This document shows, piece by piece, positions 9,369 to 57,006 of a stretch of DNA of 64,000 nucleotides. The DNA is from an uncultured Bacilli bacterium (GTDB lineage Bacteria; Bacillota_I; Bacilli_A; RF39; UBA660): positions 775-64,774 of the forward strand of contig CALVIE010000002.1 in NCBI GenBank assembly GCA_944329385.1, written 5' to 3'. A model generated the notes under the pieces. The model was given only the letters and a program-made list of their open reading frames with translations. It did no database searches and had not been told where the DNA came from. The position numbers and the translations under genes are program-made. How positions within the stretch are numbered: the stretch's first letter is position 1; each line of letters begins with the position of its first letter.

Positions 9369-9384
9369 TTTCTATAGTTTTTTT
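9358..9384 (+). terminator. Rho-independent terminator of uvrA
   Basis: Stem ctataga/tctatag with loop ttaat, then T7. It overlaps the stop codon. Confidence 0.7.
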
Positions 9385-9441
9385 GTTTTTTAAAGGAAAA
9401 TTTCTAAAAAAATCGTATGTTTATATATAGAGGTGAAAATT

Positions 9442-10326
9442 ATGAATTACTATGATGAAATAAAAGGTGTTTTAGTAAAAAATGAGGTTTATAAAAAAGT
9501 AAAAGATTATTCAAAAAACAGAAGTGATTTAAATGCTTACTTTGAAGTGGGCAGATTAATAGTGGAAGCTCAAGGTGGTGAGGCAAGGGCCAAATATGGA
9601 AATAAGTTAATCAAAGAATATTCTATTAGATTAACTGAGGAGCTTGGTAAGGGGTATACTGAGAGAAATTTACGTAATATGCGGAATTTTTATATTAAAT
9701 TTAGGAAATGGTACGCAGTGCGTACCGAATTAACTTGGACGCATTATCGTGTAATGTTATCATTAACAGATTTTAAAGAAATTGAATATTATATGAATAT
9801 TGCAGTGATACAAAACCTTTCATATAGAGAACTTAGAGAAAGAATAAAGTCGAAAGAATATGAAAGACTTGGAAAAGATATTAATATAGAAGAGCCAAAA
9901 GTAAATACATTAATTAAAAATCCAATATTGATCAAAGTTAAAAATAAAAATGAAAGGTTAACTGAATATGCCTTACATCAATCTATTTTAGAAAATATTG
10001 ATGATTTTTTAAAGGAACTTGGTATTGGTTTTACTTTTGCAGGTAGTGAAATAAAAATTCAAATAGGTGATAGATATAATTATATAGACTTCTTGTTATT
10101 TAATGTAAAATTTAATTGTTATGTAGTAATCGAACTTAAAATTACAGAAATGAAAGCTGAATATATTGGTCAAATTATGAAATATGTTAGTTATGTTGAT
10201 AAGCATATTAAAGAAATGCATAATGATAAAACAGTAGGTGTAATTATTTGCAGAAAAGAAAATAAATATGTGATGGAGTATTGTACAAACCTTAATATAT
10301 TTGTATCTACTTATGAAACTATATAG
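9442..10326 (+). CDS. DUF1016/YhcG-family PD-(D/E)XK nuclease, paralog 1 of 4
   Basis: The N-terminal DUF1016-type region (...FEVGRLIVEAQGGEARAKYG...NMRNFY...LTWTHYR) and the C-terminal nuclease core (YIDFLLFNVKFNCYVVIELK) match the family. ATG at 9442 after RBS aggtga aligns with the starts of copies 2-4. Confidence 0.8.
   Translation: MNYYDEIKGVLVKNEVYKKVKDYSKNRSDLNAYFEVGRLIVEAQGGEARAKYGNKLIKEYSIRLTEELGKGYTERNLRNMRNFYIKFRKWYAVRTELTWTHYRVMLSLTDFKEIEYYMNIAVIQNLSYRELRERIKSKEYERLGKDINIEEPKVNTLIKNPILIKVKNKNERLTEYALHQSILENIDDFLKELGIGFTFAGSEIKIQIGDRYNYIDFLLFNVKFNCYVVIELKITEMKAEYIGQIMKYVSYVDKHIKEMHNDKTVGVIICRKENKYVMEYCTNLNIFVSTYETI
9710..9726. repeat. 17-nt perfect palindrome inside paralog 1
   Basis: ggtacgca-g-tgcgtacc, GC-rich in an AT-rich gene, centred on the first base of the Val codon of the A-V-R motif. 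Confidence 0.9.
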
Positions 10327-10340
10327 AAAGAAGTGATAAT

Positions 10341-11225
10341 GTGAATTATTATAATGAAATAAAAGATACGCTGGTTAAAAATGAAGTTTATAAAAAGGTT
10401 AAAGATTATTCTAAAAATAGAAGTGATCTAAATGCTTATTTTGAAGTAGGAAGATTAATTGTAGAAGCTCAGGGCGGTGAAGCTAGAGCTAAATATGGAA
10501 ATAGACTGATTAAAGAATATTCTTTAAAATTAACTGAGGAGCTTGGTAGAGGATATAATGTTACAAATTTAAAAAATATGAGGCAATTTTATTTAAGAAT
10601 TAAAAAAGGTCGCACAGTGTGCGACCAATTGCAATGGAGTCATTATAGATATTTATTGCCTATTATTGATGAACAAGCTTTTGATTATTATGTTATGATT
10701 ACAGAAATGTTAAATTTATCAGTAAGGGAACTTAGAGAAAGGATTAAGTCGAAAGAATATGAAAGAATTGGTAAGAATGTAAATTTAGAAAATACTAAAG
10801 TAAATACATTAATTAAGAATCCAATATTAATTAAAGTAAAAAATAAAAATGAAAGGTTAACTGAATATGCTTTACATCAATCTATTTTAGAAAATATGGA
10901 AAATTTTTTGAAAGAATTAGGTGTTGGTTTTGCTTTTATCGGTAGTGAAATAAAAATTAAAATGGGTGATAGATATAACTATATAGATTTTTTACTATTT
11001 AATGTTAAATATAATTGTTATGTAGTAATTGAACTTAAAATAACAGAAATGAAAGCTGAATATATAGGACAAGTTACTAAATATATAAATTATGTAGATA
11101 AACATATTAAAGAAATGCATAATGATAAAACAGTAGGTGTAATTATTTGCAGAAAAGAAAATAAATATGTGATGGAGTATTGTACAAACCTTAATATATT
11201 TGTATCTACTTATGAAACTATATAG
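10341..11225 (+). CDS. DUF1016/YhcG-family PD-(D/E)XK nuclease, paralog 2 of 4
   Basis: 294 aa with a GTG start 14 nt after the previous stop. It has the same architecture as paralog 1, and its 3' ~125 nt are identical to copy 1. Confidence 0.8.
   Translation: MNYYNEIKDTLVKNEVYKKVKDYSKNRSDLNAYFEVGRLIVEAQGGEARAKYGNRLIKEYSLKLTEELGRGYNVTNLKNMRQFYLRIKKGRTVCDQLQWSHYRYLLPIIDEQAFDYYVMITEMLNLSVRELRERIKSKEYERIGKNVNLENTKVNTLIKNPILIKVKNKNERLTEYALHQSILENMENFLKELGVGFAFIGSEIKIKMGDRYNYIDFLLFNVKYNCYVVIELKITEMKAEYIGQVTKYINYVDKHIKEMHNDKTVGVIICRKENKYVMEYCTNLNIFVSTYETI
10608..10626. repeat. 19-nt perfect palindrome inside paralog 2
   Basis: ggtcgcaca-g-tgtgcgacc, at the same codon position as in paralog 1. Confidence 0.9.
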
Positions 11226-11239
11226 AAAGAAGTGATAAT

Positions 11240-12133
11240 GTGAATTATTATAATGAAATAAAAGATACGCTGGTTAAAAATGAAGTTTATAAAAAGGTTA
11301 AAGATTATTCTAAAAATAGAAGTGATCTAAATGCTTATTTTGAAGTAGGAAGATTAATTGTAGAAGCTCAGGGCGGTGAAACTAGAGCTAAATATGGAAA
11401 TAGACTGATTAAAGAATATTCTTTAAAATTAACTAAGGAACTCGGCAAAGGATATACTTATACTAATTTGAGTAGAATGAGACAATTTTATTTACTTTCT
11501 TTAAAAGTTGCGACACTGTCGCAACAATTATATAAAATTAGTTGGAGTCATTATACTGAATTATTGAAAATTAAAAATGTAAATGAATTAAAATATTATA
11601 TCTATGTTATTCAAAAGCAAAACTTATCAGTAAGAGAGCTTAGGGAAAGAATAAAGACTAATGAGTATGAAAGGTTAGGGAGTAAAACAAAGTTAGAAGA
11701 GCCAAAAGTAAATACATTAATTAAAAATCCAATATTGCTCAAAATTAAAAATAAAAATGATAAATTAACAGAATATGCTTTACACCAATCTATTTTAGAA
11801 AATATGGATGTTTTTTTAAAAGAATTAGGTGTTGGTTTTACTTATGTAGGCAATGAAGTAAAGATTAACATAGGAACTAGTTTTCATTATATTGATTTTT
11901 TACTTTTTAACGTGAAATTTAATTGTTATGTTGTAGTAGAACTTAAGATAACTGAATTTAAAGCTGAATATATTGGACAGGTTATGAAATATATAAATTA
12001 TGTTGATAAAAATATTAAAGAGTGTTTTAATGATAAAACGGTTGGTGTGATTATTTGCAGAAAAGAAAATAAATATGTTATGGAATACTGCACGGATAAT
12101 AGGATATTTACTACTACATATGAAACTATATAG
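11240..12133 (+). CDS. DUF1016/YhcG-family PD-(D/E)XK nuclease, paralog 3 of 4
   Basis: 297 aa with a GTG start. The 5' end is nearly identical to copies 2 and 4, and the 3' ~270 nt are identical to copy 4. Confidence 0.8.
   Translation: MNYYNEIKDTLVKNEVYKKVKDYSKNRSDLNAYFEVGRLIVEAQGGETRAKYGNRLIKEYSLKLTKELGKGYTYTNLSRMRQFYLLSLKVATLSQQLYKISWSHYTELLKIKNVNELKYYIYVIQKQNLSVRELRERIKTNEYERLGSKTKLEEPKVNTLIKNPILLKIKNKNDKLTEYALHQSILENMDVFLKELGVGFTYVGNEVKINIGTSFHYIDFLLFNVKFNCYVVVELKITEFKAEYIGQVMKYINYVDKNIKECFNDKTVGVIICRKENKYVMEYCTDNRIFTTTYETI
11507..11525. repeat. 19-nt perfect palindrome inside paralog 3
   Basis: gttgcgaca-c-tgtcgcaac, at the same codon position as in the other copies. Confidence 0.9.
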
Positions 12134-12147
12134 AAAGAAGTGATAAT

Positions 12148-13041
12148 GTGAATTATTATAATGAAATAAAAGATACGCTGGTTAAAAATGAAGTTTATAA
12201 AAAGATTAAAGATTATTCTAAAAATAGAAGTGATCTTAATACCTATTTTGAAGTAGGAAGATTAATTGTAGAAGCTCAGGGCGGTGAAGCTAGAGCTAAA
12301 TATGGAAATAAACTGATTAAAGAATATTCAGCAAAATTAACTATGGAACTTGGTAAAGGATATGGTGTATCTAATTTAAAGAGAATGAGGCAGTTTTATT
12401 TATTGTTTGAAAAAGGTGCCTCACTGCGGCACCTTTTTGGAAATCTTACTTGGACTCACTATAAATATTTATTACCTTTAAATGATAACAAGAAAATATC
12501 TTATTATATGAATATTGCAATATCTGAAAATTTATCATACCGTGAGTTAAGAGAAAAAATAAAAATTAACGAGTATGAAAGGTTAGAAAATAAAATAGAG
12601 TTAGAAGAGCCAAAAGTAAATACATTAATTAAAAATCCAATATTAATTAAAGTAAAAAATAAAAATGAAAAGTTAAGTGAGTATGCACTGCACCAATCTA
12701 TATTAGAAAATATGGGAGATTTTTTGAAAGAGCTTGGCATTGGATTTTTATATGCAGGTAGTGAAGTAAAGATTAACATAGGAACTAGTTTTCATTATAT
12801 TGATTTTTTACTTTTTAACGTGAAATTTAATTGTTATGTTGTAGTAGAACTTAAGATAACTGAATTTAAAGCTGAATATATTGGACAGGTTATGAAATAT
12901 ATAAATTATGTTGATAAAAATATTAAAGAGTGTTTTAATGATAAAACGGTTGGTGTGATTATTTGCAGAAAAGAAAATAAATATGTTATGGAATACTGCA
13001 CGGATAATAGGATATTTACTACTACATATGAAACTATATAG
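12148..13041 (+). CDS. DUF1016/YhcG-family PD-(D/E)XK nuclease, paralog 4 of 4
   Basis: 297 aa with a GTG start and the same architecture as the other copies. Confidence 0.8.
   Translation: MNYYNEIKDTLVKNEVYKKIKDYSKNRSDLNTYFEVGRLIVEAQGGEARAKYGNKLIKEYSAKLTMELGKGYGVSNLKRMRQFYLLFEKGASLRHLFGNLTWTHYKYLLPLNDNKKISYYMNIAISENLSYRELREKIKINEYERLENKIELEEPKVNTLIKNPILIKVKNKNEKLSEYALHQSILENMGDFLKELGIGFLYAGSEVKINIGTSFHYIDFLLFNVKFNCYVVVELKITEFKAEYIGQVMKYINYVDKNIKECFNDKTVGVIICRKENKYVMEYCTDNRIFTTTYETI
12410..12438. repeat. 29-nt near-perfect palindrome inside paralog 4
   Basis: 11-bp arms aaaaaggtgcc/ggcaccttttt around tcactgc, whose ca/tg can also pair. It sits at the same codon position as in the other copies. 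Confidence 0.85.
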
Positions 13042-46232: not shown

Positions 46233-47171
46233 ATGGAAAAGATTTCTTTAGTTGTTCCGTGCTATAACGAACAGGATGTAATAAAAATTTTTTATGATGA
46301 AATACAAAAGATAAAAAAGGATTTTGAAAATGTCTGCTTTGAAATTATATTTGTAGATGATGGCTCTTTAGATAAAACACTTAATATTATTAGAGAGCTT
46401 TCTGTAAATGATGATGTGAGATATATTTCTTTTTCACGAAATTTTGGCAAAGAAGCGGCGATGTATGCAGGGCTTCATGCGTCTTTGGGAGATTATGTGG
46501 CTATTATGGATGCAGATTTGCAAGATCCTCCGATTTTATTAAAAAAAATGTATGATATATTAAAAGCTGGTGAGTTTGATAGCGTGGCTACTAGGAGAGT
46601 GACGCGTAAAGGCGAGCCTTTAATTAGAAGTTTTTTTGCAAGACTTTACTATAAGATTATCAATAAGATTTCAAAAACAGAGATTGTTGATGGGGCGAGA
46701 GATTATAGACTTATGAATAGGAAAATGGTCGATGCGATTTTAGAAGTTAAGGAGTATAACCGATTTTCAAAGGGCATTTTTTCTTGGGTAGGTTTTAAAA
46801 CAAAATGGCTTGAATATGAAAATGTTGAGAGGGCAGCTAGTGAGTCTAAGTGGTCTTTTTGGAAATTATTTTTATATTCTTTAGATAGTGTAGTGGCTTT
46901 TTCAACTATTCCACTTTCTATTGCTTCTGTGATGGGAATACTTTTTTGTTTTATTTCGTTTTTGATTATTTTGTTTGTGATTGTAAGAACTTTGATATAT
47001 GGAGATCCGACTAGTGGATGGCCAAGTATGGTTTGTATTATGTTTTTTATTGGTGGTGTGCAGCTGCTTTGTATTGGAATTATAGGACAGTATTTATCTA
47101 AAACTTATTTAGAGGTTAAAAAAAGACCAATATATGTTGTTGCAGAAACTGAGAAAGATAGGGTGGACTGA
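46233..47171 (+). CDS. GT2 polyprenol-phosphate glycosyltransferase (GtrB/CsbB-like)
   Basis: ISLVVPCYNE, VDDGSLD and MDADLQDPP motifs, with two C-terminal TM helices. Confidence 0.85.
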   Translation: MEKISLVVPCYNEQDVIKIFYDEIQKIKKDFENVCFEIIFVDDGSLDKTLNIIRELSVNDDVRYISFSRNFGKEAAMYAGLHASLGDYVAIMDADLQDPPILLKKMYDILKAGEFDSVATRRVTRKGEPLIRSFFARLYYKIINKISKTEIVDGARDYRLMNRKMVDAILEVKEYNRFSKGIFSWVGFKTKWLEYENVERAASESKWSFWKLFLYSLDSVVAFSTIPLSIASVMGILFCFISFLIILFVIVRTLIYGDPTSGWPSMVCIMFFIGGVQLLCIGIIGQYLSKTYLEVKKRPIYVVAETEKDRVD

Positions 47172-49714
47172 TGAGAAAGATTTTATGGATTTGTTTATTT
47201 AGTTTTATATCGATGTTTATGTTTAATTTTTCGGCCAAAGCTTTAGATGGTGGTCAAACGATAGAAGATGGAACTTATGTTATAAAAAGTGCATTAAATG
47301 AGAATATGGTTTTAGATGTTGCTTATAAATCGGTTTCTAATGGAGCGAATGTTCAACTTTTTAATTATACAGGAGCTTCTAATCAAAAGTGGAACGTTAA
47401 GTATTTGAATAATGGATATTATTCTATTAAAACAGCGATGAGTGATAGTATGTCACTTGATGTATTTTGTGCGAGTACTTTACCTGGGGCGAACGTGCAA
47501 TTATTTACGTATAAAGGTGGAGATAATCAGCAGTGGATTATTAAAGATGCAGGAGATGGATATTATTATATTGTAGATAAGAACAGTAAAATGCATTTAG
47601 ATGTTTATAAAGGATCTTCTAGTAATGGGACGAATATTCAAGTGTTTACGCCTAGAACAACCGTTAATCAAAAGTTTAAGTTTGAAAAAGAAGTTATAGA
47701 AGAACCTGTAAAAACGATAGAAGATGGAACTTATGTTATAAAAAGTGCATTAAATGAGAATATGGTTTTAGATGTTGCTTATAAATCGGTTTCTAATGGA
47801 GCGAATGTTCAACTTTTTAATTATACAGGAGCTTCTAATCAAAAGTGGAACGTTAAGTATTTGAATAATGGATATTATTCTATTAAAACAGCGATGAGTG
47901 ATAGTATGTCACTTGATGTATTTTGTGCGAGTACTTTACCTGGGGCGAACGTGCAATTATTTACGTATAAAGGTGGAGATAATCAGCAGTGGATTATTAA
48001 AGATGCAGGAGATGGATATTATTATATTGTAGATAAGAACAGTAAAATGCATTTAGATGTTTATAAAGGATCTTCTAGTAATGGGACGAATATTCAAGTG
48101 TTTACGCCTAGAACAACCGTTAATCAAAAGTTTAAGTTTGAAAAAGAAGTTATAGAAGAACCTGTAAAAACGATAGAAGATGGAACTTATGTTATAAAAA
48201 GTGCATTAAATGAGAATATGGTTTTAGATGTTGCTTATAAATCGGTTTCTAATGGAGCGAATGTTCAACTTTTTAATTATACAGGAGCTTCTAATCAAAA
48301 GTGGAACGTTAAGTATTTGAATAATGGATATTATTCTATTAAAACAGCGATGAGTGATAGTATGTCACTTGATGTATTTTGTGCGAGTACTTTACCTGGG
48401 GCGAACGTGCAATTATTTACGTATAAAGGTGGAGATAATCAGCAGTGGATTATTAAAGATGCAGGAGATGGATATTATTATATTGTAGATAAGAACAGTA
48501 AAATGCATTTAGATGTTTATAAAGGATCTTCTAGTAATGGAACGAATATTCAAGTGTTTACACCTAGGACAACCGTTAATCAAAAGTTTGAATTTGTATC
48601 TACAGATGTGAATGTGGATGAACCGGTTTTTGAAGATGGTGTTTATAGTTTATCACCTGTTTTGAATGAAAATAAGAATTTTGATGTTGAGGCTAAATCT
48701 AGATTGAATAATACAGCAGTTTCTTTATTTGATATTACAAATGATAATAATCAGCTTTGGTATTTAGAATATGTTTCTGAAGGTTATTATAGAATAAATA
48801 GTGCGATGAATCCTGAACTTTCTTTGACTGTATTTAATGGCAGTTTAGTGATTTCTAAGTATAGTGGTTCAAACGATCAATTATGGAGATTTAAGCTTTT
48901 AGGCAATGGGGAAGTTTCTATTATTTCTAAGGCTAGTGAGCTTTATTTATCTTTGGAAAGTTCTTCGGCGGCAAACAATACTAAAATTATTTTATCTGAT
49001 GGTAGTATGGATGATACACAAAAGTTTGTTTTAAAAAGTTATAATGAGAAAAAAGTTTATAACGGGATTGATATTTCTTATTATCAAGGAGATATAGATT
49101 GGCAGGCCTTATCAGTTTCTGGAGTTGAATTTGTTATTATAAGAGCTGGTTATGGAAGCGATTGGACTTTTCAAGATGATGTGAAATTTTTAGAGTATGT
49201 TGCTCAATGTGAAAAATATAATATTCCATACGGTTTATATTTGTATTCTTATGCGAGTAATATAGATAATGGTAATCAAAGTGCACAGTCAGAAGCTAGA
49301 CACATGCTTAGATTAATTGATGAAATTGAGAAAAACAATTATTCTCCAAATTTAGGAACTAAGGTTTTTATTGATATGGAAGATAGTAGTGTTGTAAGTG
49401 TTGGTAAGGATATGCTTACGAAGGTATCTGATACTTTTTGTTCAATTATTGAAAGTAATGGATATGGCTGCGGAGTTTATGCAAATAAGATATGGCTTAC
49501 TAATAATTTAAATGCTTCTTTTCTTGCAAGTAAATACGATATATGGCTTGCGGAGTGGCTTCCTGTTTTAAATCCTACTTTTAATTATGCAAGACAGCAA
49601 AAACCAACTTATAATTTAACAGATTATAAAATTTGGCAATTTGCTTCTGATGGTATTGTTGATGGAATTTCTGGCAATGTTGATGTTGATTTAGGATATG
49701 ATATTTTTGAGTAA
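47171..49714 (+). CDS. Secreted GH25 muramidase with four ricin-B (QxW)3 lectin modules
   Basis: A signal peptide is followed by three near-identical 152-aa beta-trefoil units (NQKW / NQQW / NQKF) and one divergent unit. The C-terminal GH25 domain reads GIDISYYQGDIDWQALSVSGVEFVIIRAGYG. Confidence 0.85.
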   Translation: MRKILWICLFSFISMFMFNFSAKALDGGQTIEDGTYVIKSALNENMVLDVAYKSVSNGANVQLFNYTGASNQKWNVKYLNNGYYSIKTAMSDSMSLDVFCASTLPGANVQLFTYKGGDNQQWIIKDAGDGYYYIVDKNSKMHLDVYKGSSSNGTNIQVFTPRTTVNQKFKFEKEVIEEPVKTIEDGTYVIKSALNENMVLDVAYKSVSNGANVQLFNYTGASNQKWNVKYLNNGYYSIKTAMSDSMSLDVFCASTLPGANVQLFTYKGGDNQQWIIKDAGDGYYYIVDKNSKMHLDVYKGSSSNGTNIQVFTPRTTVNQKFKFEKEVIEEPVKTIEDGTYVIKSALNENMVLDVAYKSVSNGANVQLFNYTGASNQKWNVKYLNNGYYSIKTAMSDSMSLDVFCASTLPGANVQLFTYKGGDNQQWIIKDAGDGYYYIVDKNSKMHLDVYKGSSSNGTNIQVFTPRTTVNQKFEFVSTDVNVDEPVFEDGVYSLSPVLNENKNFDVEAKSRLNNTAVSLFDITNDNNQLWYLEYVSEGYYRINSAMNPELSLTVFNGSLVISKYSGSNDQLWRFKLLGNGEVSIISKASELYLSLESSSAANNTKIILSDGSMDDTQKFVLKSYNEKKVYNGIDISYYQGDIDWQALSVSGVEFVIIRAGYGSDWTFQDDVKFLEYVAQCEKYNIPYGLYLYSYASNIDNGNQSAQSEARHMLRLIDEIEKNNYSPNLGTKVFIDMEDSSVVSVGKDMLTKVSDTFCSIIESNGYGCGVYANKIWLTNNLNASFLASKYDIWLAEWLPVLNPTFNYARQQKPTYNLTDYKIWQFASDGIVDGISGNVDVDLGYDIFE
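47258..48625 (+). repeat. Three tandem 456-bp repeats inside the muramidase gene
   Basis: The units start at 47258, 47714 and 48170. Units 1 and 2 look identical by eye, and unit 3 diverges only in its last ~60 nt. Confidence 0.9.
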
Positions 49715-49717
49715 TAT

Positions 49718-49739
49718 CTATCCTTTTTTTGACTTTTAT
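49718..49739 (+). repeat. Left 22-bp direct repeat
   Basis: Exact match to 56450-56471. It starts 4 nt after the muramidase stop. Confidence 0.9.
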
Positions 49740-49934
49740 GTAATAGGAAAGTTATACTTCTTATTGAATATGGATTAAGTTAATTATTTTTTATATATTG
49801 ACATAATAAAATCGTTTCATTTATTATATAATAAATGAAAATGTTTATAATTGTTGCTATTTTTAACAAGTTGTGATAGTATAATTGGCAGTGAAAAATT
49901 ATTTGTGGGTTATTTGAAGTTTTGTATTAACTAT

Positions 49935-49951
49935 TATATACACAACATAGG
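49935..49951. repeat. Left arm of the inverted repeat bracketing the precursor gene
   Basis: tatatacacaacatagg is complementary to 50153-50170 (cctatgttgtgttatata) with a one-base bulge. Confidence 0.8.
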
Positions 49952-49992
49952 TTTATGTTTATATATATAATCTGTAAAGGGGGAATGTATCG

Positions 49993-50127
49993 GTGAAAAA
50001 AGCAATTTTAAAAAATGATATTGTGAAAAACTTGAAAACAAAAATTTCTTCTAAAAAAATTAAAATTTCTTTTGGAAATAAAATCGGATTAGGGTACGAC
50101 GGTTGTGGTACTCATACACATAAGTAA
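49993..50127 (+). CDS. Candidate RiPP precursor peptide (44 aa)
   Basis: GTG start 8 nt after RBS aaaggggga. The peptide is MKKAILKNDIVKNLKTKISSKKIKISFGNKIGLGYDGCGTHTHK: a Lys-rich leader and a Gly/Cys/His C-terminal core. It lies 55 nt upstream of a rSAM/SPASM gene and is absent from the ORF track because it is too short. Confidence 0.6.
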   Translation: MKKAILKNDIVKNLKTKISSKKIKISFGNKIGLGYDGCGTHTHK

Positions 50128-50152
50128 AAATCTTATTAATTAATCATATTCC

Positions 50153-50170
50153 CCTATGTTGTGTTATATA
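50153..50170. repeat. Right arm of the inverted repeat bracketing the precursor gene
   Basis: See 49935-49951. It ends at the RBS aggagg of the maturase gene. Confidence 0.8.
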
Positions 50171-50182
50171 GGAGGTAATTTG

Positions 50183-51775
50183 ATGCGAACTTCTTGGTTG
50201 AGTCGTGAATATGAAAAATCTAAAAATGTTGTTTCAAAAAAAGTTGATAACAATGAATATTTGTTAAAAAATGAAAAAACTGGTGTAGAAATTATTTTAT
50301 CCAGTGAAGAATTTGATAAATATAATTCTAATCAGTTTAATGAAATTGAATGGGAAAGATTATTTTTAAAAGGATTAGCTATTGATAAGAATTGTGATAC
50401 GTTTGAGGTTAGTTCTGATTTTAATTTAGAAAATAAAAAATTTATACATTCTAAAAAAGTCGCTTCATTTCCTTTAAAAGTAGGTAATGAGAAATTTGAA
50501 ATTCTTATAAATCCAGATTTGGGCTCTTGGATGGCTTTTACTGAAGAAGAATTTAAAAATTATGAAAATAATAATTTATCACAAGATGGGTGGTTAAGTT
50601 TATTTATAAGAGGCCTTGCTAATACTGAAGATAATATGGAAATTGATTTAGACTTTCCTATTCCTGCTGAATATCCTAGTGTAATAGTAGTTAATATTAC
50701 CACAGGCTGTAATTTAAGATGTAAATATTGTTTTGCTGATTGTGGACCTTTTAAAGGCGAAGATATGACTGAGGATGTAATGGATGCTACAATAGATAGT
50801 ATGTTATCAATGCCACAGATTAAAGTTGTAACTTTTGAGTTTCAAGGTGGAGAGGCTTCTACGAATGTAGCAGGTATGAGAACTTTTATTGAAAAAGTTG
50901 AAAAGGTTAAAAACAAATATGATAAATTAGTAAAATATAGAACAGAAATTAATTGTGTTTCTGTCACAGATGAATTAATTAAATTGGTAAAAGATTTTAA
51001 TGTTAGTGTTGGAATTAGTTTAGATGGTCCTAAATATATGACAGATAAGACTCGAGTAGATATTAATGGTATTGGTGCGTATGATAGGATTATGAGAGGA
51101 ATTAAAAAATTGCGTGATAATGGAATATATATAGATGGCGCAGTATGTACTGTCGGACAACACAATGTTCATTATCCGAAAGAATTAATGGAATTTTTTG
51201 ATGAATTAGGTATGAATTTTAAACCTAGACCAGTTAATATATTAGGTAGGGAAAAAGAAAATCATTTAACAACTAGGCCTGGTGAATGGGCCAAATGCTT
51301 TAAAGAAATGCACAAGATGAAAAATGATGTAGATGTTGAAAATTATTCTGTACATATATTTGAAGAAAACGTTTATACTCCAATTCGTGATTATATTTGT
51401 TTACGTTATCCATGTGGAGCAGCTAGGGAACTTGTTTCTGTGAATCCTAATGGTGATGTTTTCCCTTGTGATGGATTTAAAGGTGAGAAAAAATTTGTTA
51501 TGGGTAATGTACTTAATGAAAAAATCGAAGATATGTTGAAAAAACCTGAAATCGTTAAGTTAAGAAATAGAACAGCTCAAACTATTAAAAAATGTAGTAC
51601 TTGTATTTTTAGGGGGATGTGTTGTTCTTGTTGTTATTCTGCTTATGGAGAATTTGGAGATATATATAGGGAAGATCCTCAATGTGTTGATAGACGTCAG
51701 ATGTATGTATATTTAATCCAATCATGGATAGAAGAAAATGTATTAGAAAAAGGAAAAGACAGGGTAAATGTATAA
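50183..51775 (+). CDS. Radical SAM/SPASM peptide maturase with a duplicated N-terminal RRE-like module
   Basis: CxxxCxxC is present as GCNLRCKYC. The SPASM Cys clusters are CGAARELVSVNPNGDVFPCDGF and CSTCIFRGMCCSCCYS...QCVDRR. The N-terminal ~165 aa contains two similar ~55-aa units (...SSEEFDKYNSNQFNEIEWERLFLKGLA and ...TEEEFKNYENNNLSQDGWLSLFIRGLA). Confidence 0.85.
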   Translation: MRTSWLSREYEKSKNVVSKKVDNNEYLLKNEKTGVEIILSSEEFDKYNSNQFNEIEWERLFLKGLAIDKNCDTFEVSSDFNLENKKFIHSKKVASFPLKVGNEKFEILINPDLGSWMAFTEEEFKNYENNNLSQDGWLSLFIRGLANTEDNMEIDLDFPIPAEYPSVIVVNITTGCNLRCKYCFADCGPFKGEDMTEDVMDATIDSMLSMPQIKVVTFEFQGGEASTNVAGMRTFIEKVEKVKNKYDKLVKYRTEINCVSVTDELIKLVKDFNVSVGISLDGPKYMTDKTRVDINGIGAYDRIMRGIKKLRDNGIYIDGAVCTVGQHNVHYPKELMEFFDELGMNFKPRPVNILGREKENHLTTRPGEWAKCFKEMHKMKNDVDVENYSVHIFEENVYTPIRDYICLRYPCGAARELVSVNPNGDVFPCDGFKGEKKFVMGNVLNEKIEDMLKKPEIVKLRNRTAQTIKKCSTCIFRGMCCSCCYSAYGEFGDIYREDPQCVDRRQMYVYLIQSWIEENVLEKGKDRVNV

Positions 51776-52406
51776 TAGGTTTGTTGTAGATGGTAGAAAT
51801 GTTGGAAAGACAACATTTCTACTTTCTGAAATAGAGAAAAATATGTCTGAGAATAGTAGAATTATTGTATTGGATTCTGCTACTGAACATGAGGATAAAT
51901 CATTATTAAAAAAAGTTGAAAAAAAATATGATGATGTGGTGGTTTTTTCGCCTAATGATATAAATGATATTGTGTTAAACCATATTAATATAGATGAATT
52001 TATTCAAAATTTTAGTTCTTATTATCCATATGATGAAATCGTAAAAAATAAGAATAAATTAATTTGTTTTGACTTGTCTTATTTTCTAGAGTTTGCTCAT
52101 ACAATTTATGATGAAACTAATAATGAAGAATTATATAAATATTATAGGTCATGTTATAATTTTTTATCTGAACAGATTGTACTTGTCATTATTTTGATGA
52201 AAAAATATGATATAATTGATACGAATTTGGTTGTTATGGATGAACTGGAGTTTCCTATAACAACTTATGATATTTCTTGTTTTCAAGAAAATATATCGTT
52301 TTTAGCTTCTGTTCACCCAGAAAATTCTTTTGGAAGTTTTTACAAAAGTTTTGAACCAGCTGATTTTAAGCCTTATAAACCTTATGTTAAGAGAAAGGAA
52401 TGTTAA
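51768..52406 (+). CDS. Small P-loop NTPase, unknown family
   Basis: Walker A DGRNVGKTT and Walker-B-like LVVMDELEF. It overlaps the maturase gene by 8 nt. Confidence 0.55.
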   Translation: MYNRFVVDGRNVGKTTFLLSEIEKNMSENSRIIVLDSATEHEDKSLLKKVEKKYDDVVVFSPNDINDIVLNHINIDEFIQNFSSYYPYDEIVKNKNKLICFDLSYFLEFAHTIYDETNNEELYKYYRSCYNFLSEQIVLVIILMKKYDIIDTNLVVMDELEFPITTYDISCFQENISFLASVHPENSFGSFYKSFEPADFKPYKPYVKRKEC

Positions 52407-52407
52407 T

Positions 52408-54489
52408 ATGAATTTGACACCTGAACAATTAGAAGAAGAAAAAAAATACTTAGAAGAAGTAATGAAAGTAGTTAAAGAATTATATGATAAAAATAGTGAT
52501 TCTATTGATAGTCAGATTGATTCCATACAAGAATTAAAAAAATATATATGGGATAATATTTCTGAATTAGATGATATGGAAGTCGCTGGAGAAATGTATA
52601 ATGTTAATACAAATGTGGGATATGCAAATAAAAGAATAGCTAATTTACAACAATTGAGAAAATCTTTATATAGTCCTTATTTTGGTCGAATTGATTTTAA
52701 ACGTGATAAAGCTAGAAGTAATAAACCTAAAAAAATATATATTGGTTTAAATGGAATATCTAAGGATATGAATCATTTTGTATTTGATTGGAGAACTCCT
52801 ATTGCTAGTTTGTTCTATAATTATGGTATTGGTAATGCTTCTTATGAAGCTCCAGTTGGTACTATAAGCGGAGAAGTTACTTTAAAAAGACAATATAAAA
52901 TTACTGATGGGCAATTAGAAAGATGTTTTGAAAGTGATTTGAATATTGATGATGAATATTTGCAGGAAATTTTATCTAATGCTTCTTCTGAAAAAATGAC
53001 TAATATTGTTAAAACTATCCAAAAAGAACAGAATGTTATTATTAGAAATGTTGTTGATAAATATTTAATTGTGCAAGGTATTGCTGGGAGTGGTAAAACA
53101 TCAGTCGCATTACATAGAATAGCTTATTTATTATATGCTGAAAAGGATTTAACTTCTAATAATGTTTTGATTTTTTCTCCCAATGATGTATTTTCTGAAT
53201 ATATTTCGAATGTTTTACCTGAATTGGGGGAGGATAATGTTCTGCAAACTACGTTTAGTGATTTTGCTAAATCTTATATTAAGGATTATAAAAATATAGA
53301 AAGTTTTACTGAGTTTATAGAACGTTATTATAAGAATGAAAATTTTGATGAAGAAGAATTTAGAATAATAAAATATAAGTTATCTAATGAATTTAAAAAA
53401 AATTTAGATGAAGCTATTGTGGCTTATAAAAATGGTTTATCATTTAATCATGGATTTATAATTAATGATAAGTTTATTTCTAAAGGTGAATTAAATCAGT
53501 TATTTAATGAAAAATTGTCACGTTTACCAATTCCAGAAAGATTTGATGTTTTAGCTGAAAATTTATGTGATATATCTGGAGTTCCTTATAAAAAATATGA
53601 AAAAACAATTAAAAAACATTTACTTGAAATGATTTCTGGGCAATTATCAATTAAAGATTTGTATGTATCTATTTTAAATTCTGATAATTTTAAACAGAAA
53701 GTTGAAGTTTCAAAAGAGATTGAACTTAAAAAAGGAAAAAAATTGATGTTTGAGGATCTTTTACCATTACTTTATATAAATTTTGAAATTAATGGTTATC
53801 CTAGAGGTAATTCAATAAAGCATATTATAATTGATGAAGCCCAAGATTATACTAAATTACAAATTAGTATGTTGAAGAAAATTTTTACTAAGGCTTCATT
53901 TACAATTTTAGGTGATGTGAATCAAACTATTAATCCTTATTATATGTATGGTTCTTTGAATGAAATGAATTCTATTTTTGATAATGAAGGCCGTTATATT
54001 GAGTTAAGTAAGACATATCGTTCTAGTGAAGAAATTATAGATTATACAAATGAAATTTTGGGTATTAATAATGCTTGTTCTGTTAGAAAATCTAATTCTA
54101 TTCCAGTTACTGTTGAGGATATTGAATCTTATGATCTAGTTAAAAAATTAAAATTAGAGATTGATCGTATGACATCAATTGATTTAAAAAGAGTAGCAAT
54201 TATTACTAAAAATAATGCGCAAGCTTTAGATATTTATAATAAATTAGAAAATGAAGTAGAAGGGATTACTTTAATTGATGGAATTTCTGAACAAAAAATT
54301 GGTCGAATTGTTGTTTTACCTTCTTATATTTCTAAAGGATTAGAATTTGATGGTGTTATAGTTTATACTGATGATGAGCATAAATATAATGATAAAGATA
54401 AATATTTGTTCTATGTTGTATGTACAAGAGCTCAGCATTGCTTAACAATATTTAATCAAAAAGCAATGAAAAAGACTATTAATAAATGA
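52408..54489 (+). CDS. HelD-like UvrD/Rep superfamily-1 helicase (RNA polymerase-associated type)
   Basis: An N-terminal coiled coil precedes the signature SPYFGRIDF...IYIGLNGI...VFDWRTPIASLFYNY. Walker A is GIAGSGKTSVALHRIAYLLY, followed by IIIDEAQDY and a C-terminal VVCTRAQH. ATG at 52408 follows RBS aaagga. Confidence 0.8.
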   Translation: MNLTPEQLEEEKKYLEEVMKVVKELYDKNSDSIDSQIDSIQELKKYIWDNISELDDMEVAGEMYNVNTNVGYANKRIANLQQLRKSLYSPYFGRIDFKRDKARSNKPKKIYIGLNGISKDMNHFVFDWRTPIASLFYNYGIGNASYEAPVGTISGEVTLKRQYKITDGQLERCFESDLNIDDEYLQEILSNASSEKMTNIVKTIQKEQNVIIRNVVDKYLIVQGIAGSGKTSVALHRIAYLLYAEKDLTSNNVLIFSPNDVFSEYISNVLPELGEDNVLQTTFSDFAKSYIKDYKNIESFTEFIERYYKNENFDEEEFRIIKYKLSNEFKKNLDEAIVAYKNGLSFNHGFIINDKFISKGELNQLFNEKLSRLPIPERFDVLAENLCDISGVPYKKYEKTIKKHLLEMISGQLSIKDLYVSILNSDNFKQKVEVSKEIELKKGKKLMFEDLLPLLYINFEINGYPRGNSIKHIIIDEAQDYTKLQISMLKKIFTKASFTILGDVNQTINPYYMYGSLNEMNSIFDNEGRYIELSKTYRSSEEIIDYTNEILGINNACSVRKSNSIPVTVEDIESYDLVKKLKLEIDRMTSIDLKRVAIITKNNAQALDIYNKLENEVEGITLIDGISEQKIGRIVVLPSYISKGLEFDGVIVYTDDEHKYNDKDKYLFYVVCTRAQHCLTIFNQKAMKKTINK

Positions 54490-55004
54490 AAAAGAAAACA
54501 AATTGCGGTAGTTCTTGCGTAAAATATGTTTTAAATGCTCAAAATTTATCAATAGACAATGTTAATGATGATATGTATTGGATTAGTGAATTAGCTTTAT
54601 CTTTGAAGAAAAATAGCATTAATAATTTGGAAGTGTTTTTCTTTAATAGTTCATTGTATAGTGGGTATGTAAATGATTATGATCCAAATTTTATAGGCTT
54701 TAAGTTGCTTGATGAACTGATTAATGAAAATATAAAATTATCAGAAAGAAAACTTTCTATTAAAGAGTTGATAAAAGAAATTAATGATAGCCAATTTATT
54801 ATTTTATGTGTTGAATCTAGTAAATTTAATCATAACAAAAATATGAGTGGTGGACATTTTGTTATTATCAGTAAAATGGAAGGAAATCTTGTGCAAATAA
54901 TAAATCCTATTAAAGACAAATATGAAATAAAAACAATGTCGAAAAGATTTATAGTAAATTGTTGTAAACATTATGGATCTTGGCGAATATTAATAAAGGG
55001 GTGA
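54486..55004 (+). CDS. Standalone peptidase C39-like (papain-fold) protein
   Basis: An N-terminal Cys motif TNCGSSCVKYVL and a distal His motif GGHFVIISKMEG...IINP. There is no fused ABC transporter. It overlaps the helicase gene by 4 nt. Confidence 0.6.
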   Translation: MKKKTNCGSSCVKYVLNAQNLSIDNVNDDMYWISELALSLKKNSINNLEVFFFNSSLYSGYVNDYDPNFIGFKLLDELINENIKLSERKLSIKELIKEINDSQFIILCVESSKFNHNKNMSGGHFVIISKMEGNLVQIINPIKDKYEIKTMSKRFIVNCCKHYGSWRILIKG

Positions 55005-55008
55005 TATA

Positions 55009-55560
55009 GTGATAAAAGTGATTGCTTTTGATATGGTAGGTGTGTTAGTAACTGAAAAGGATATTAATTTATCTTTAGAAGAGGATAAATTAGAACGATT
55101 ATTTGGAGATAATATTGATGATGCAGATTATTTGATGAATGCTAGGAAAATAATTTCTAAAGATTCAATTATAATGAGAATAACTGAAGATATTATAGAA
55201 AAATTATATAAAGTAAAAGATCCAAAAATATTTGAGAAAATTAAGGTTAAATATAATGATGTTAAAATTGTGATTGCTACTAATCATGTTTCATTTGTAA
55301 GAAATTATATAGGTGAACATTTAGATGTAAATTATTTGGATGATGTTATTATTTCTGCTGAAGTTCATAAGATAAAACCTAATGCCGACTTTTATCAGTT
55401 ATTATTAGATAAATATAATGTGAATCCTGATGAGATGTTATTTGTTGATGATAATCAAAAAAATGTTGATGGTGCGAAAAAACTTGGTATTAAAACAATT
55501 AAGATTGATAAAGGTATGGATGTATGTAGCGAAGTAATGAAATTTTTAGATAATATGTAA
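55009..55560 (+). CDS. HAD-superfamily hydrolase (atypical motif I)
   Basis: Motif I reads IAFDMVGVLV, with the second Asp replaced by Val. Motif IV is FVDDNQKNVDGAKKLG. The start is GTG. Confidence 0.7.
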   Translation: MIKVIAFDMVGVLVTEKDINLSLEEDKLERLFGDNIDDADYLMNARKIISKDSIIMRITEDIIEKLYKVKDPKIFEKIKVKYNDVKIVIATNHVSFVRNYIGEHLDVNYLDDVIISAEVHKIKPNADFYQLLLDKYNVNPDEMLFVDDNQKNVDGAKKLGIKTIKIDKGMDVCSEVMKFLDNM

Positions 55561-55563
55561 TAT

Positions 55564-55620
55564 AAAAGAGATTAATTATGATAACTTTAAAATTTATTTA
55601 TATCATTATTAATCTCTTTT
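55564..55620 (+). terminator. Strong hairpin terminator ending the RiPP-like operon
   Basis: ~20-bp arms aaaagagattaattatgata/tatcattattaatctctttt with one mismatch, followed by a T-rich tail. Confidence 0.7.
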
Positions 55621-55789
55621 CATTATTTTTATAACTTATGTATGTTTTTTTAAAACAAATTCTACTATTTGTATGGCAATTCCATAAAAAAATTAAATAG
55701 TTTAACCAAAGCAAAAAAAATAAGTTATAATTAACTAAAATTGTGGGAGTTGATTAGTTGTGAGTTTATAAATATAATAATAATGACAA

Positions 55790-56400
55790 TTTAAGCGATT
55801 TTATGTGGTTAAATAGATTATATAAATATTGCGTATTTTATGATGATAAAAGAAGATTATTTTACAAATTTATTAGGATTAGAAAATGGAATGACATCGC
55901 ATGATTGTTTGTCATATTTATTTTCTAGAATTGATTTCTAAAAATTTATGGAAGTGTTTATAGATTGGGTAAAAGAAATAGTTAAAATTAAAAGTGGTGG
56001 AAAATAAGTATATCTGGTAAAGCCATTAAAAGTGCACATTCTGTTTTAAAGATTAAAGATAATCAAAAGCAATTAAATAGAGATGTAAAAAGGCAGTTTA
56101 ATAAATTCAACAATTTATATTGGAGTAATGATGAAGTAAAAACTACAGAACATTATTATATAATTGATTATAAAATAGACATTGAAACATTAGAGAAAGC
56201 TATAAGATATAATTGAAATATTCAATATTCTCTTTACTGGAGATTAGAGGTAATTATGGATGAAGAACACTAAAGAAATAGAGAGGAAAATTTTATACAT
56301 AATTTAGATACTTTTTGAAAAATAGTATTTAATTTAGCTGATTTAGATAATAGTTTTGTATTTGATTTTAAAAATATAAAAAGACTGATATTTGAAGTTA
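55790..56400 (+). pseudogene. Decayed ISAs1-family transposase remnant
   Basis: Many stops and frameshifts, but recognisable blocks remain: GMTSHDCLSYLFSRIDF, ISGKAIKSAH (cf. IDGKTLRGS), LKIKDNQKQL (cf. KGNQ) and IRYN*NIQYSLYWRLEVIMDEEH (cf. IRxHWxIENxLHWxLDVxFxED). The central DDE region is deleted. Boundaries are approximate. Confidence 0.6.
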
Positions 56401-56449
56401 TTCCCCAAGTTACATATTAAAAACAATCGCTAAATATTTTTATACGATG

Positions 56450-56471
56450 CTATCCTTTTTTTGACTTTTAT
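56450..56471 (+). repeat. Right 22-bp direct repeat
   Basis: Exact match to 49718-49739. It contains the -35 box of the downstream operon. Confidence 0.9.
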
Positions 56472-56489
56472 TTTTTATTATTATATAAT
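56462..56489 (+). promoter_or_regulatory. Promoter of the Kdo/polysaccharide operon
   Basis: TTGACT (56462-56467), 16-nt spacer, TATAAT (56484-56489). Confidence 0.55.
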
Positions 56490-56514
56490 GAGAGTGTTAA
56501 AGTATGGTGATTGA

Positions 56515-57006
56515 ATGAAAATAAAACTTGTGTTAACAGATATTGATGGTTGTATGACTGACAACTGTGTTTTTTATACGCCAAGTGGTGATAAAGTAAA
56601 GAAGTTTAATATGGCTGATGGAATGGGTGTTAAGATTTTGCAAAACGAAGGACTATCAGTTGGGGTTATTTCAGGTGATAACAGTATGGCTTCTAAAAAA
56701 AGGATGGAAGATTTAAAGGTTAATTATATATATATTAATGTTAAGGAAAAGGATAAAATTTTGGATGAGCTTATTAGAAATTTAAATATTAAATTAGATG
56801 AAGTTGCCTATATGGGTGATGATTTACAAGATTTGTGTGTATTAAAAAAAGTTGGTTTATCTTTTTGTCCTAATAATGCAGTTAGTGAAGTTAAAGAATG
56901 TGTGAATGTTGTTTTGAATAAAAGTGGGGGCGATGGAGCTTTTAGAGAATATGCAGATTATGTTTTAGATTACAATAGAAAAATAGAAAGGAAGAATTTA
57001 GTATGA
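56515..57006 (+). CDS. kdsC: Kdo-8-phosphate phosphatase (HAD-IIIA)
   Basis: VLTDIDGCMTD, GVISGD and YMGDDLQDL in a 163-aa protein. Confidence 0.8.
   Translation: MKIKLVLTDIDGCMTDNCVFYTPSGDKVKKFNMADGMGVKILQNEGLSVGVISGDNSMASKKRMEDLKVNYIYINVKEKDKILDELIRNLNIKLDEVAYMGDDLQDLCVLKKVGLSFCPNNAVSEVKECVNVVLNKSGGDGAFREYADYVLDYNRKIERKNLV

Follow-up and report, generated by a model that had tools for sequence, protein, structure and literature searches.

The HelD gene at positions 52408-54489 of the DNA analysed here, a stretch of 64,000 nucleotides from an uncultured Bacilli bacterium (hereafter the window), lies within a compact six-gene cassette together with genes for a short precursor peptide and a radical S-adenosylmethionine (rSAM) enzyme with a SPASM domain, and HelD stays with this rSAM family across phyla. 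That HelD is functionally integrated in the cassette is very probable. Reasoning from gene context, we propose with a probability of roughly 45% that its function is target protection, i.e. that HelD guards the producer's RNA polymerase (RNAP) from the matured peptide, which probably acts on transcription.

Judged by its sequence, the 693-aa protein is a genuine class-I HelD. It scored 502.8 bits with the NCBIfam equivalog model HelD_BACSU (NF041464, cut-off 419), and a six-frame search of its own genome returned the same HelD with 503.4 bits; the class-II models HelR and HelD_MYCSM (NF041254, NF041258) gave scores far below their cut-offs (146.4 vs 750 and 141.5 vs 1100). The top solved structure was Bacillus subtilis HelD (6wvk_H, E 1.3e-109), with residues 2-683 covered. 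The motifs quoted in the initial annotation were located, PYFGRIDF at residues 90-97 and DWRTPIASLFYNY at residues 127-139, which together with the NF041464 score and the 6WVK alignment affirms the identity claimed there. Walker A (GIAGSGKT, 224-231), Walker B (IIDEAQDY, 474-481) and motif VI (VVCTRAQ, 670-676) are present as well, and the Pfam matches are to UvrD-helicase and AAA_19. In a sequence-only alignment, residues 2-422 correspond to residues 2-435 of 6WVK chain H; here D55 and D56 in the tip of the secondary-channel arm (ELDDME, 53-58) align with D56 and D57 of the B. subtilis protein, and E58 lies one position off its E60. The arm-tip pattern LD-(D/N/P/E)-x-E is kept across the cassette HelDs. 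D56/D57 and E60 of B. subtilis HelD are needed for rifampicin protection, and this class-I protein was reported in 2026 to shield RNAP from rifampicin via an arm reaching the active-site region (PMC12802891).

The cassette HelD resembles B. subtilis HelD (PDB 6WVK, 6ZCA, 6ZFB) in having an N-terminal arm with an acidic tip, the ATPase motifs of superfamily 1 (SF1) and a C-terminal 2A domain. However, it falls about 80 residues short of the B. subtilis protein, a gap lying opposite residues 435-478 of the latter, and while B. subtilis HelD stands alone under a rifampicin-sensing dual promoter, the cassette HelD is encoded inside a mobile peptide-maturation operon and, unlike its B. subtilis counterpart, is accessory in its own genus. 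The class-II protein HelR of Actinobacteria, which is associated with rifamycin producers, sets a precedent for target protection by the HelD family in that it displaces rifamycin from RNAP. HelR belongs to the other HelD class, and its partner is a polyketide, whereas that of the cassette HelD would be a ribosomal peptide.

A search with the rSAM protein yielded 16 close loci with 73-80% identity. All 15 informative close loci share the same six-gene order, as does G030, a genome assigned to a different family, and the HelD proteins were 55-64% identical across the close loci. A profile search separated members of the rSAM family, with at least 47% identity, from other rSAM/SPASM loci with at most 29%. 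HelD was encoded within 9 kb in 30 of 36 further family loci, compared to none of the 46 control rSAM/SPASM loci, which answers positively the question posed by the initial annotation of whether HelD genes recur beside homologous rSAM/precursor pairs. Moreover, rSAM homologues as distant as 46-62% identity have a HelD next to them in Melioribacteraceae, Lentisphaerae, Bacteroidetes, Clostridia and Roseburia; with HelD_BACSU these distant partners scored 518.6 (L057), 442.9 although truncated (L058) and 394.6, just under the cut-off (L060). Two of the six HelD-less family loci (L075, L078) are on contigs ending just past the rSAM gene, and the remaining ones (L086, L087, L088, L089) group together in a distinct rSAM clade (99% support). 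The sub-clades (L058, L082) and (L080, (L079, (L081, L083))) occur in the rSAM tree as well as in the HelD tree. An apparently split HelD in L074/L054 was rejected as a counter-example; the scaffold contains a run of 10 N at this point and no frameshift.

All six genes are encoded on the + strand in the order precursor, rSAM/SPASM enzyme, P-loop protein, HelD, C39-like protease and HAD hydrolase (Table 1). From the rSAM to the HAD gene, successive neighbours overlap by 8 nt, lie 1 nt apart, overlap by 4 nt and lie 4 nt apart; the 212-aa gene upstream of HelD ends one base short of the HelD ATG, and the HelD stop shares the sequence ATGA (54486-54489) with the start of the next gene. With precursor and rSAM/SPASM genes upstream, the earlier description of HelD as translationally coupled inside an operon for a ribosomally made, post-translationally modified peptide (RiPP) is a fair one. 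No terminator-like site was found within 49700-56600. Given such tight junctions and no terminator, the six genes are probably transcribed from a single promoter; the promoter-like sites in Table 1 are pattern matches only and are not enriched in this AT-rich region. Pfam and open reading frame (ORF) surveys detected no transporter in the six-gene cassette or in its flanks within the window. The window genes flanking the cassette are cell-wall polysaccharide genes and not a defence island, and PADLOC reported only generic UvrD/GajB and viperin-level similarity for the cassette. As to expression, the sequencing runs matching the stretch hold DNA only, from chicken-gut and other metagenomes.

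Table 1. Features of the HelD cassette and its surroundings, and the second cassette type (window positions unless a locus is named).
Feature	Position	Strand	Basis or remarks
Left 22-bp direct repeat, CTATCCTTTTTTTGACTTTTAT	49718..49739		Repeat search, family D2, 100% identity, spacing 6732
Promoter-like site TTGACA-18-TATTAT	49798..49827	+	Consensus scan; 11/12 consensus, best upstream of the operon
Precursor gene, 44 aa, GTG start, (M)KKAILKNDIVKNLKTKISSKKIKISFGNKIGLGYDGCGTHTHK	49993..50127	+	ORF with GGGGG Shine-Dalgarno-like stretch
Radical-SAM/SPASM maturase	50183..51775 (longest ORF from 50156)	+	Pfam Radical_SAM 62.6 bits, SPASM 40.8 bits
P-loop NTPase 'u212', 212 aa	51768..52406	+	Walker A G..GKT, then DSAT, then Walker B MDE(I/L)E
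Class-I HelD gene, 693 aa	52408..54489	+	No internal stops; NCBIfam and structure alignment
Stand-alone C39-like cysteine protease, 172 aa	54486..55004	+	Weak Pfam matches, conserved catalytic-type residues
HAD-IA family hydrolase, 183 aa, putative phosphatase	55009..55560	+	Pfam HAD_2 50.8 bits; NCBIfam HAD-SF-IA-v3 above cut-off
Decayed ISAs1-type transposase remnant	55800..56330	+	Stops, frameshifts, internal deletion (three-frame translation)
Right 22-bp direct repeat	56450..56471		Overlaps -35 box of TTGACT-17-TATAAT promoter-like site before kdsC
Cassette 2 in G020	L032:7516-14844		HelD, 40-aa precursor, rSAM, PP2C phosphatase, APH-type kinase, second HelD, GNAT gene

Homologues of the precursor precede every family rSAM gene. 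Their core, GYDGCG(T/S/A)H(T/G)H, varies at the two bracketed positions, and its remaining residues are invariant in all loci examined; it is rich in metal ligands (Tyr, Asp, Cys and two His). The leader is Lys-rich and carries the motif (K/R)ND(I/V)V.(N/G)LK, and the core is preceded by G-x-G or L-G. For the rSAM enzyme, the ATG at 50183 is the likelier start, as it follows a perfect aggagg and fits the MR.PW N-terminus of the homologues. The CxxxCxxC motif and the SPASM cysteines are invariant in the rSAM alignment (A1). The enzyme remained below all NCBIfam cut-offs, the scores being 165.5 of 370 for HxsB, 153.7 of 450 for DynA, 149.6 of 340 for PapB and 118.6 of 425 for the SCIFF maturase.

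The P-loop protein u212 had no Pfam, NCBIfam or PADLOC match. It is conserved in the cassette loci, with G13, K14, D36, D158, E159 and H183 invariant, and its AlphaFold2 model (mean predicted local distance difference test score 90.9) shows a generic ASCE/RecA-like fold with PDB template modelling scores of at most 0.41. Deriving a function of u212 from its fold was therefore rejected, as the confident model matches generic P-loop folds only. In L060 (9559-10683) a single protein of 374 aa comprises both the P-loop protein and the C39-like protease, a fusion suggesting that the two cooperate. The C39-like protein of the window matched the C39-like family DUF3335 (E 4e-4) and Peptidase_C39 (E 2.5e-3, 18.1 bits, cut-off 22), both below the cut-offs. 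With 44 bits for L087 and 28.6 bits for L089, the homologues of these two loci pass the Peptidase_C39 cut-off, and C7, H124 and N140-P141 are invariant in the alignment of this family (A3). The C39-like protein is a probable leader peptidase. The HAD gene is kept at the end of the cassette or nearby across the cassette loci.

The loci of the HelD-less clade are labelled Pseudomonadota (L086), Paceibacterota (L087), Parcubacteria (L088) and Thermococci (L089), and only L087 has long flanks on both sides. This Paceibacterota locus (8956-12946) has the same core peptide and keeps rSAM, C39 and HAD, with no HelD and no detectable P-loop protein. L089 (296-9004) encodes an MFS exporter and a methyltransferase and no HelD, and is the only variant with an MFS gene. 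The clade retains the core peptide along with C39 and HAD genes. A non-biosynthetic role of HelD is supported by this HelD-less clade, and also by the L085 variant and by the second cassette type, both described below. Other variants keep HelD. In L085 (7605-9442; Bacteroidetes), where the core reads GYDGCGTHGH, an APH-like kinase and a GT9-like glycosyltransferase occupy the place of the P-loop protein. In three long variants (L058:10116-15646, L082:4168-9641 and L084:4651-9650) extra genes lie between the P-loop gene and HelD. Those of L058 have Pfam matches to Aminotran_5, NTP_transf_5 and thymidylate kinase/LRR_5, and a 160-aa ORF appears CYTH-like by eye; these genes hint at nucleotide-related tailoring. 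A 700-aa protein of L058 has a weak C39-like match at its end (tblastn). Mobile or defence-like genes surround several variants, namely WYL, HipA and an integrase in L057, a TraG-type coupling protein in L058, and an SMC_N-type ATPase and a ResIII/SNF2 helicase in L085.

The HelD gene of the window reached its genome with a mobile segment. That this segment is mobile follows from the direct repeats, the insertion sequence (IS) remnant and contigs carrying the cassette in a foreign context. The repeats enclose the cassette and the remnant of a transposase, whose match to Pfam DDE_Tnp_1_assoc (E 1.5e-6, 28.6 bits) lies below the cut-off of 32.3. Among chicken-gut metagenomes, run X8 has a 6.3-kb contig that aligns with 49785-55582 at about 97%; its ends do not match, and the window flanks have no depth. 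Run X5 contains the 3' part of the operon with a fuller IS copy up to 56448, including 930 extra letters between 56003 and 56033. The cassette rSAM gene was found in only one of 65 genomes of the genus, the source genome itself.

The initial annotation had called the protein a HelD paralog and had suggested looking for a second, housekeeping helD elsewhere in the genome. The source assembly is a metagenome-assembled genome (MAG) of 1.35 Mb with 28% GC and 81% completeness, in which neither a family search nor tblastn detected a second HelD, so that the term paralog does not hold. Two further SF1 helicases were rejected as second helD candidates, one being PcrA-like (C27) and the other RecD2-like (C24). 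Of the two circumstances that the initial annotation had jointly named as speaking against its proposal, a sole helD was indeed found, whereas the adjacency proved to be conserved. In the genus, 11 of 24 genomes have any HelD and 13 have none, six of the latter being at least 90% complete and one of these a single 1.5-Mb contig. Some same-genus genomes hold two to four HelDs, and solo HelDs in ordinary contexts also occur within the genus.

In three same-genus genomes (G020, G016 and G011), HelD genes flank a different rSAM operon, here named cassette 2 as opposed to cassette 1 of the window. Its 40-aa precursor ends in DACGCTGNGQC, and its 448-aa rSAM enzyme is unrelated to that of cassette 1. 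Cassette 2 also occurs in two further Bacilli MAGs (L145, L146), and the same gene set is present in L149 at 58% rSAM identity, with a 688-aa helicase, assigned by type only as UvrD-like, at the HelD position. In addition to L032, the loci recorded for this cassette are L027, L033, L145, L146 and L149. No HelD was found with cassette-2 rSAM relatives at 42-44% identity, and the link is confined to the closer subfamily. One cassette-2 HelD is sister to the HelD of the window in the tree. The recurring set of HelD, kinase-like ATPase and phosphatase looks like an accessory module attached to rSAM peptides.

Under the target-protection hypothesis, the rSAM enzyme would probably cross-link the invariant C-terminal core, and the cytoplasmic C39-like protease would probably cut the Lys-rich leader after the G-x-G motif and release a product of about ten residues, YDGCGTHTHK, inside the cell. 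Because the cassette contains no export-coupled protease or transporter, this product is expected to stay intracellular. The matured peptide would bind RNAP, and HelD, with its acidic secondary-channel arm and intact ATPase, would free or shield the polymerase of the producer, by analogy to the rescue by HelR and B. subtilis HelD acting against rifamycins. The kinase (P-loop or APH-type) and the phosphatase (HAD or PP2C) may add a second layer of control based on phosphorylation. An immunity function is made more plausible by the demonstration that a class-I HelD protects RNAP from rifampicin (PMC12802891).

Several observations weigh against target protection. For a secreted antibiotic, the lack of a conserved transporter in the cassette is unusual. 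The enzymes diverge to about 50% identity and yet the core does not vary across phyla, a pattern more in keeping with cofactor-like or intracellular effector peptides than with antibiotics. A second HelD is lacking in about 10 of 18 cassette genomes, and therefore the pattern of a housekeeping target accompanied by a resistant copy does not apply. The existence of HelD-less variants implies that the product is tolerable without HelD in some hosts. HxsB, the nearest characterised relative of the rSAM enzyme, belongs to an antiphage system. Furthermore, a strict co-divergence of HelD and rSAM is only partly true, as L085 and L060 change position between the trees, and the cassette-2 HelDs nest among the cassette-1 HelDs in the HelD tree.

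Alternatively, HelD could be a co-effector in an intracellular mobile module for phage defence, abortive infection or poison-antidote addiction, with peptide and HelD acting jointly on host or phage transcription. The peptide could, for example, lock or load HelD on RNAP, or HelD, made continuously, could counteract a stable peptide poison. The absence of an exporter and the stand-alone C39-like protease, which implies a cytoplasmic mature peptide, are consistent with this, as are the invariant core, the mobile or defence-like surroundings (L057, L058 and L085, and the IS remnant and direct repeats in the window) and the fact that the nearest NCBIfam rSAM model, HxsB, stands for a proven antiphage defence with an rSAM-matured effector. 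We nevertheless regard a co-effector role as possible but doubtful: the PADLOC similarity is generic, membership in HxsB fails by score and HxsC, HxsD and HXS repeats are missing, the cassette of the window is flanked by cell-wall polysaccharide genes, and HelD-less variants carry the same core, so that the peptide is not everywhere dependent on HelD. An unlikely, more specific possibility is a mobile 'RNA-polymerase poison and release factor' module in place of a secreted-antibiotic cluster. Here, the cross-linked decapeptide would plug a conserved RNAP site, e.g. the secondary channel or active-site region, the dedicated HelD would be the partner on which its release or loading depends, kinase and phosphatase would tune the system, and the module would be used for addiction or for shutting down transcription upon phage attack.

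A peptide unrelated to RNAP, with a metal-binding, redox-cofactor-like or signalling function, would leave HelD, kinase and phosphatase as separate cargo, whose benefit could be tolerance of RNAP inhibitors in the gut or clearing of transcription-replication conflicts on the mobile element. The core, rich in metal ligands and as invariant as the precursors of PQQ and mycofactocin, agrees with such a peptide, and so does the missing transporter; moreover, HelD genes move horizontally among gut bacteria and are linked with antibiotic resistance (PMC8655204), and solo HelDs occur in ordinary contexts in the genus. However, a hitch-hiker is not expected to keep an internal, overlapping operon position in all 16 collinear close loci, nor to remain beside the rSAM gene where rSAM identity has fallen to about 50% and the trees agree in part, and a like linkage arose with a second, unrelated rSAM/peptide pair, which makes this explanation improbable. 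The position of HelD between biosynthetic genes with overlapping or abutting junctions and its co-occurrence with the P-loop protein in most cassette loci could also reflect recruitment of a HelD-like protein for biosynthesis, where it would serve as an ATP-driven scaffold or chaperone, offering the precursor to the rSAM enzyme or the protease, and would no longer act on RNAP. This is very improbable given that the protein is an equivalog-level HelD with its RNAP-contacting elements kept (PYFGRIDF, DWR.PI and the acidic arm tip), and that the Paceibacterota variant retains core peptide, rSAM, C39 and HAD without HelD. Finally, that an ordinary housekeeping helD came to lie beside a RiPP operon by chance would agree with its being the sole helD of the genome, but most of the genus lacks HelD, including genomes that are at least 90% complete, the gene is inside a mobile segment, and its neighbourhood is kept in the further family loci and in none of the controls; the probability of this is negligible.

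Among known systems, the HXS antiphage system comprises HxsA-D, with the rSAM pair HxsB (TIGR03978) and HxsC, HxsD and an effector, HxsA, that carries HXS repeats (PMC13128918). The cassette is similar in that HxsB is the top-scoring NCBIfam model for its rSAM enzyme and that both systems mature a ribosomal effector by rSAM chemistry. In contrast, the cassette has a single rSAM enzyme and lacks HxsD, HXS repeats and a peptidoglycan-binding effector, and HXS is without HelD. Ranthipeptide, SCIFF and dynobactin-type systems (PapB, CteB, DynA) share with the cassette the combination of a short precursor and a single rSAM/SPASM maturase, and the Cys, Asp, Tyr and His of the cassette core are residue types cross-linked by these enzymes, whereas the cassette rSAM enzyme scored below every cut-off of the PapB, SCIFF and DynA families. 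To our knowledge, no ranthipeptide, SCIFF or dynobactin-type system contains HelD, a P-loop NTPase or a HAD hydrolase. The lasso peptides microcin J25 and capistruin block the secondary channel of RNAP, the channel that HelD enters. They are however made by a lasso cyclase and not by an rSAM enzyme, and immunity to them is conferred by an ABC exporter and not by target protection.

The closest known kinds are resistance genes embedded in biosynthetic clusters and drug displacement by HelD/HelR; new here is that the partner of HelD is a ribosomal peptide system and that this link is conserved across phyla. Full-text literature searches found neither a match to the core motif GYDGCGTHTH nor a paper joining HelD or UvrD with rSAM precursor clusters. 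If target protection is correct, the cassette would represent a new ribosomal-peptide family aimed at bacterial RNAP, found by the logic that leads from a resistance gene to its target, and the first HelD-type motor serving a peptide system. It would also provide a concrete natural ligand for the biology of HelD, in which the reason why many bacteria hold several HelD copies is an open question (PMC8655204). If the poison and release factor module applies, HelD-linked rSAM peptides would constitute a new functional class that comprises no fewer than two independent cassette types. Since the core of ten residues is invariant and the six-gene cassette is small, the idea of target protection is directly testable in laboratory strains. 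Even without an immunity function, so strict a linkage, which extends across phyla and recurs with a second rSAM family plus kinase and phosphatase, identifies an uncharacterised mobile system of gut and environmental bacteria.

On the left side of the mobile segment, the neighbouring gene (47171-49714) encodes a protein of 847 aa that combines nine ricin-lectin matches (Pfam) with a GH25 muramidase domain. No empty insertion site was found in same-genus relatives, in which the right flank was adjacent nowhere. Several same-genus genomes contain matches of about 30 nt at about 90% to the repeat region (query 422-459 of the joined flanks). The cassette contigs L063, L070 and L074 are in MAGs labelled Acidaminococcus fermentans or Muribaculaceae, and their sequences cluster with the Bacilli/Mycoplasmatota copies; these odd labels are due to mis-binning or else to very recent transfer. 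In many genomes of the genus the GH25 gene has a conserved 3' end (66-78% DNA identity), and the sequence beyond it differs.

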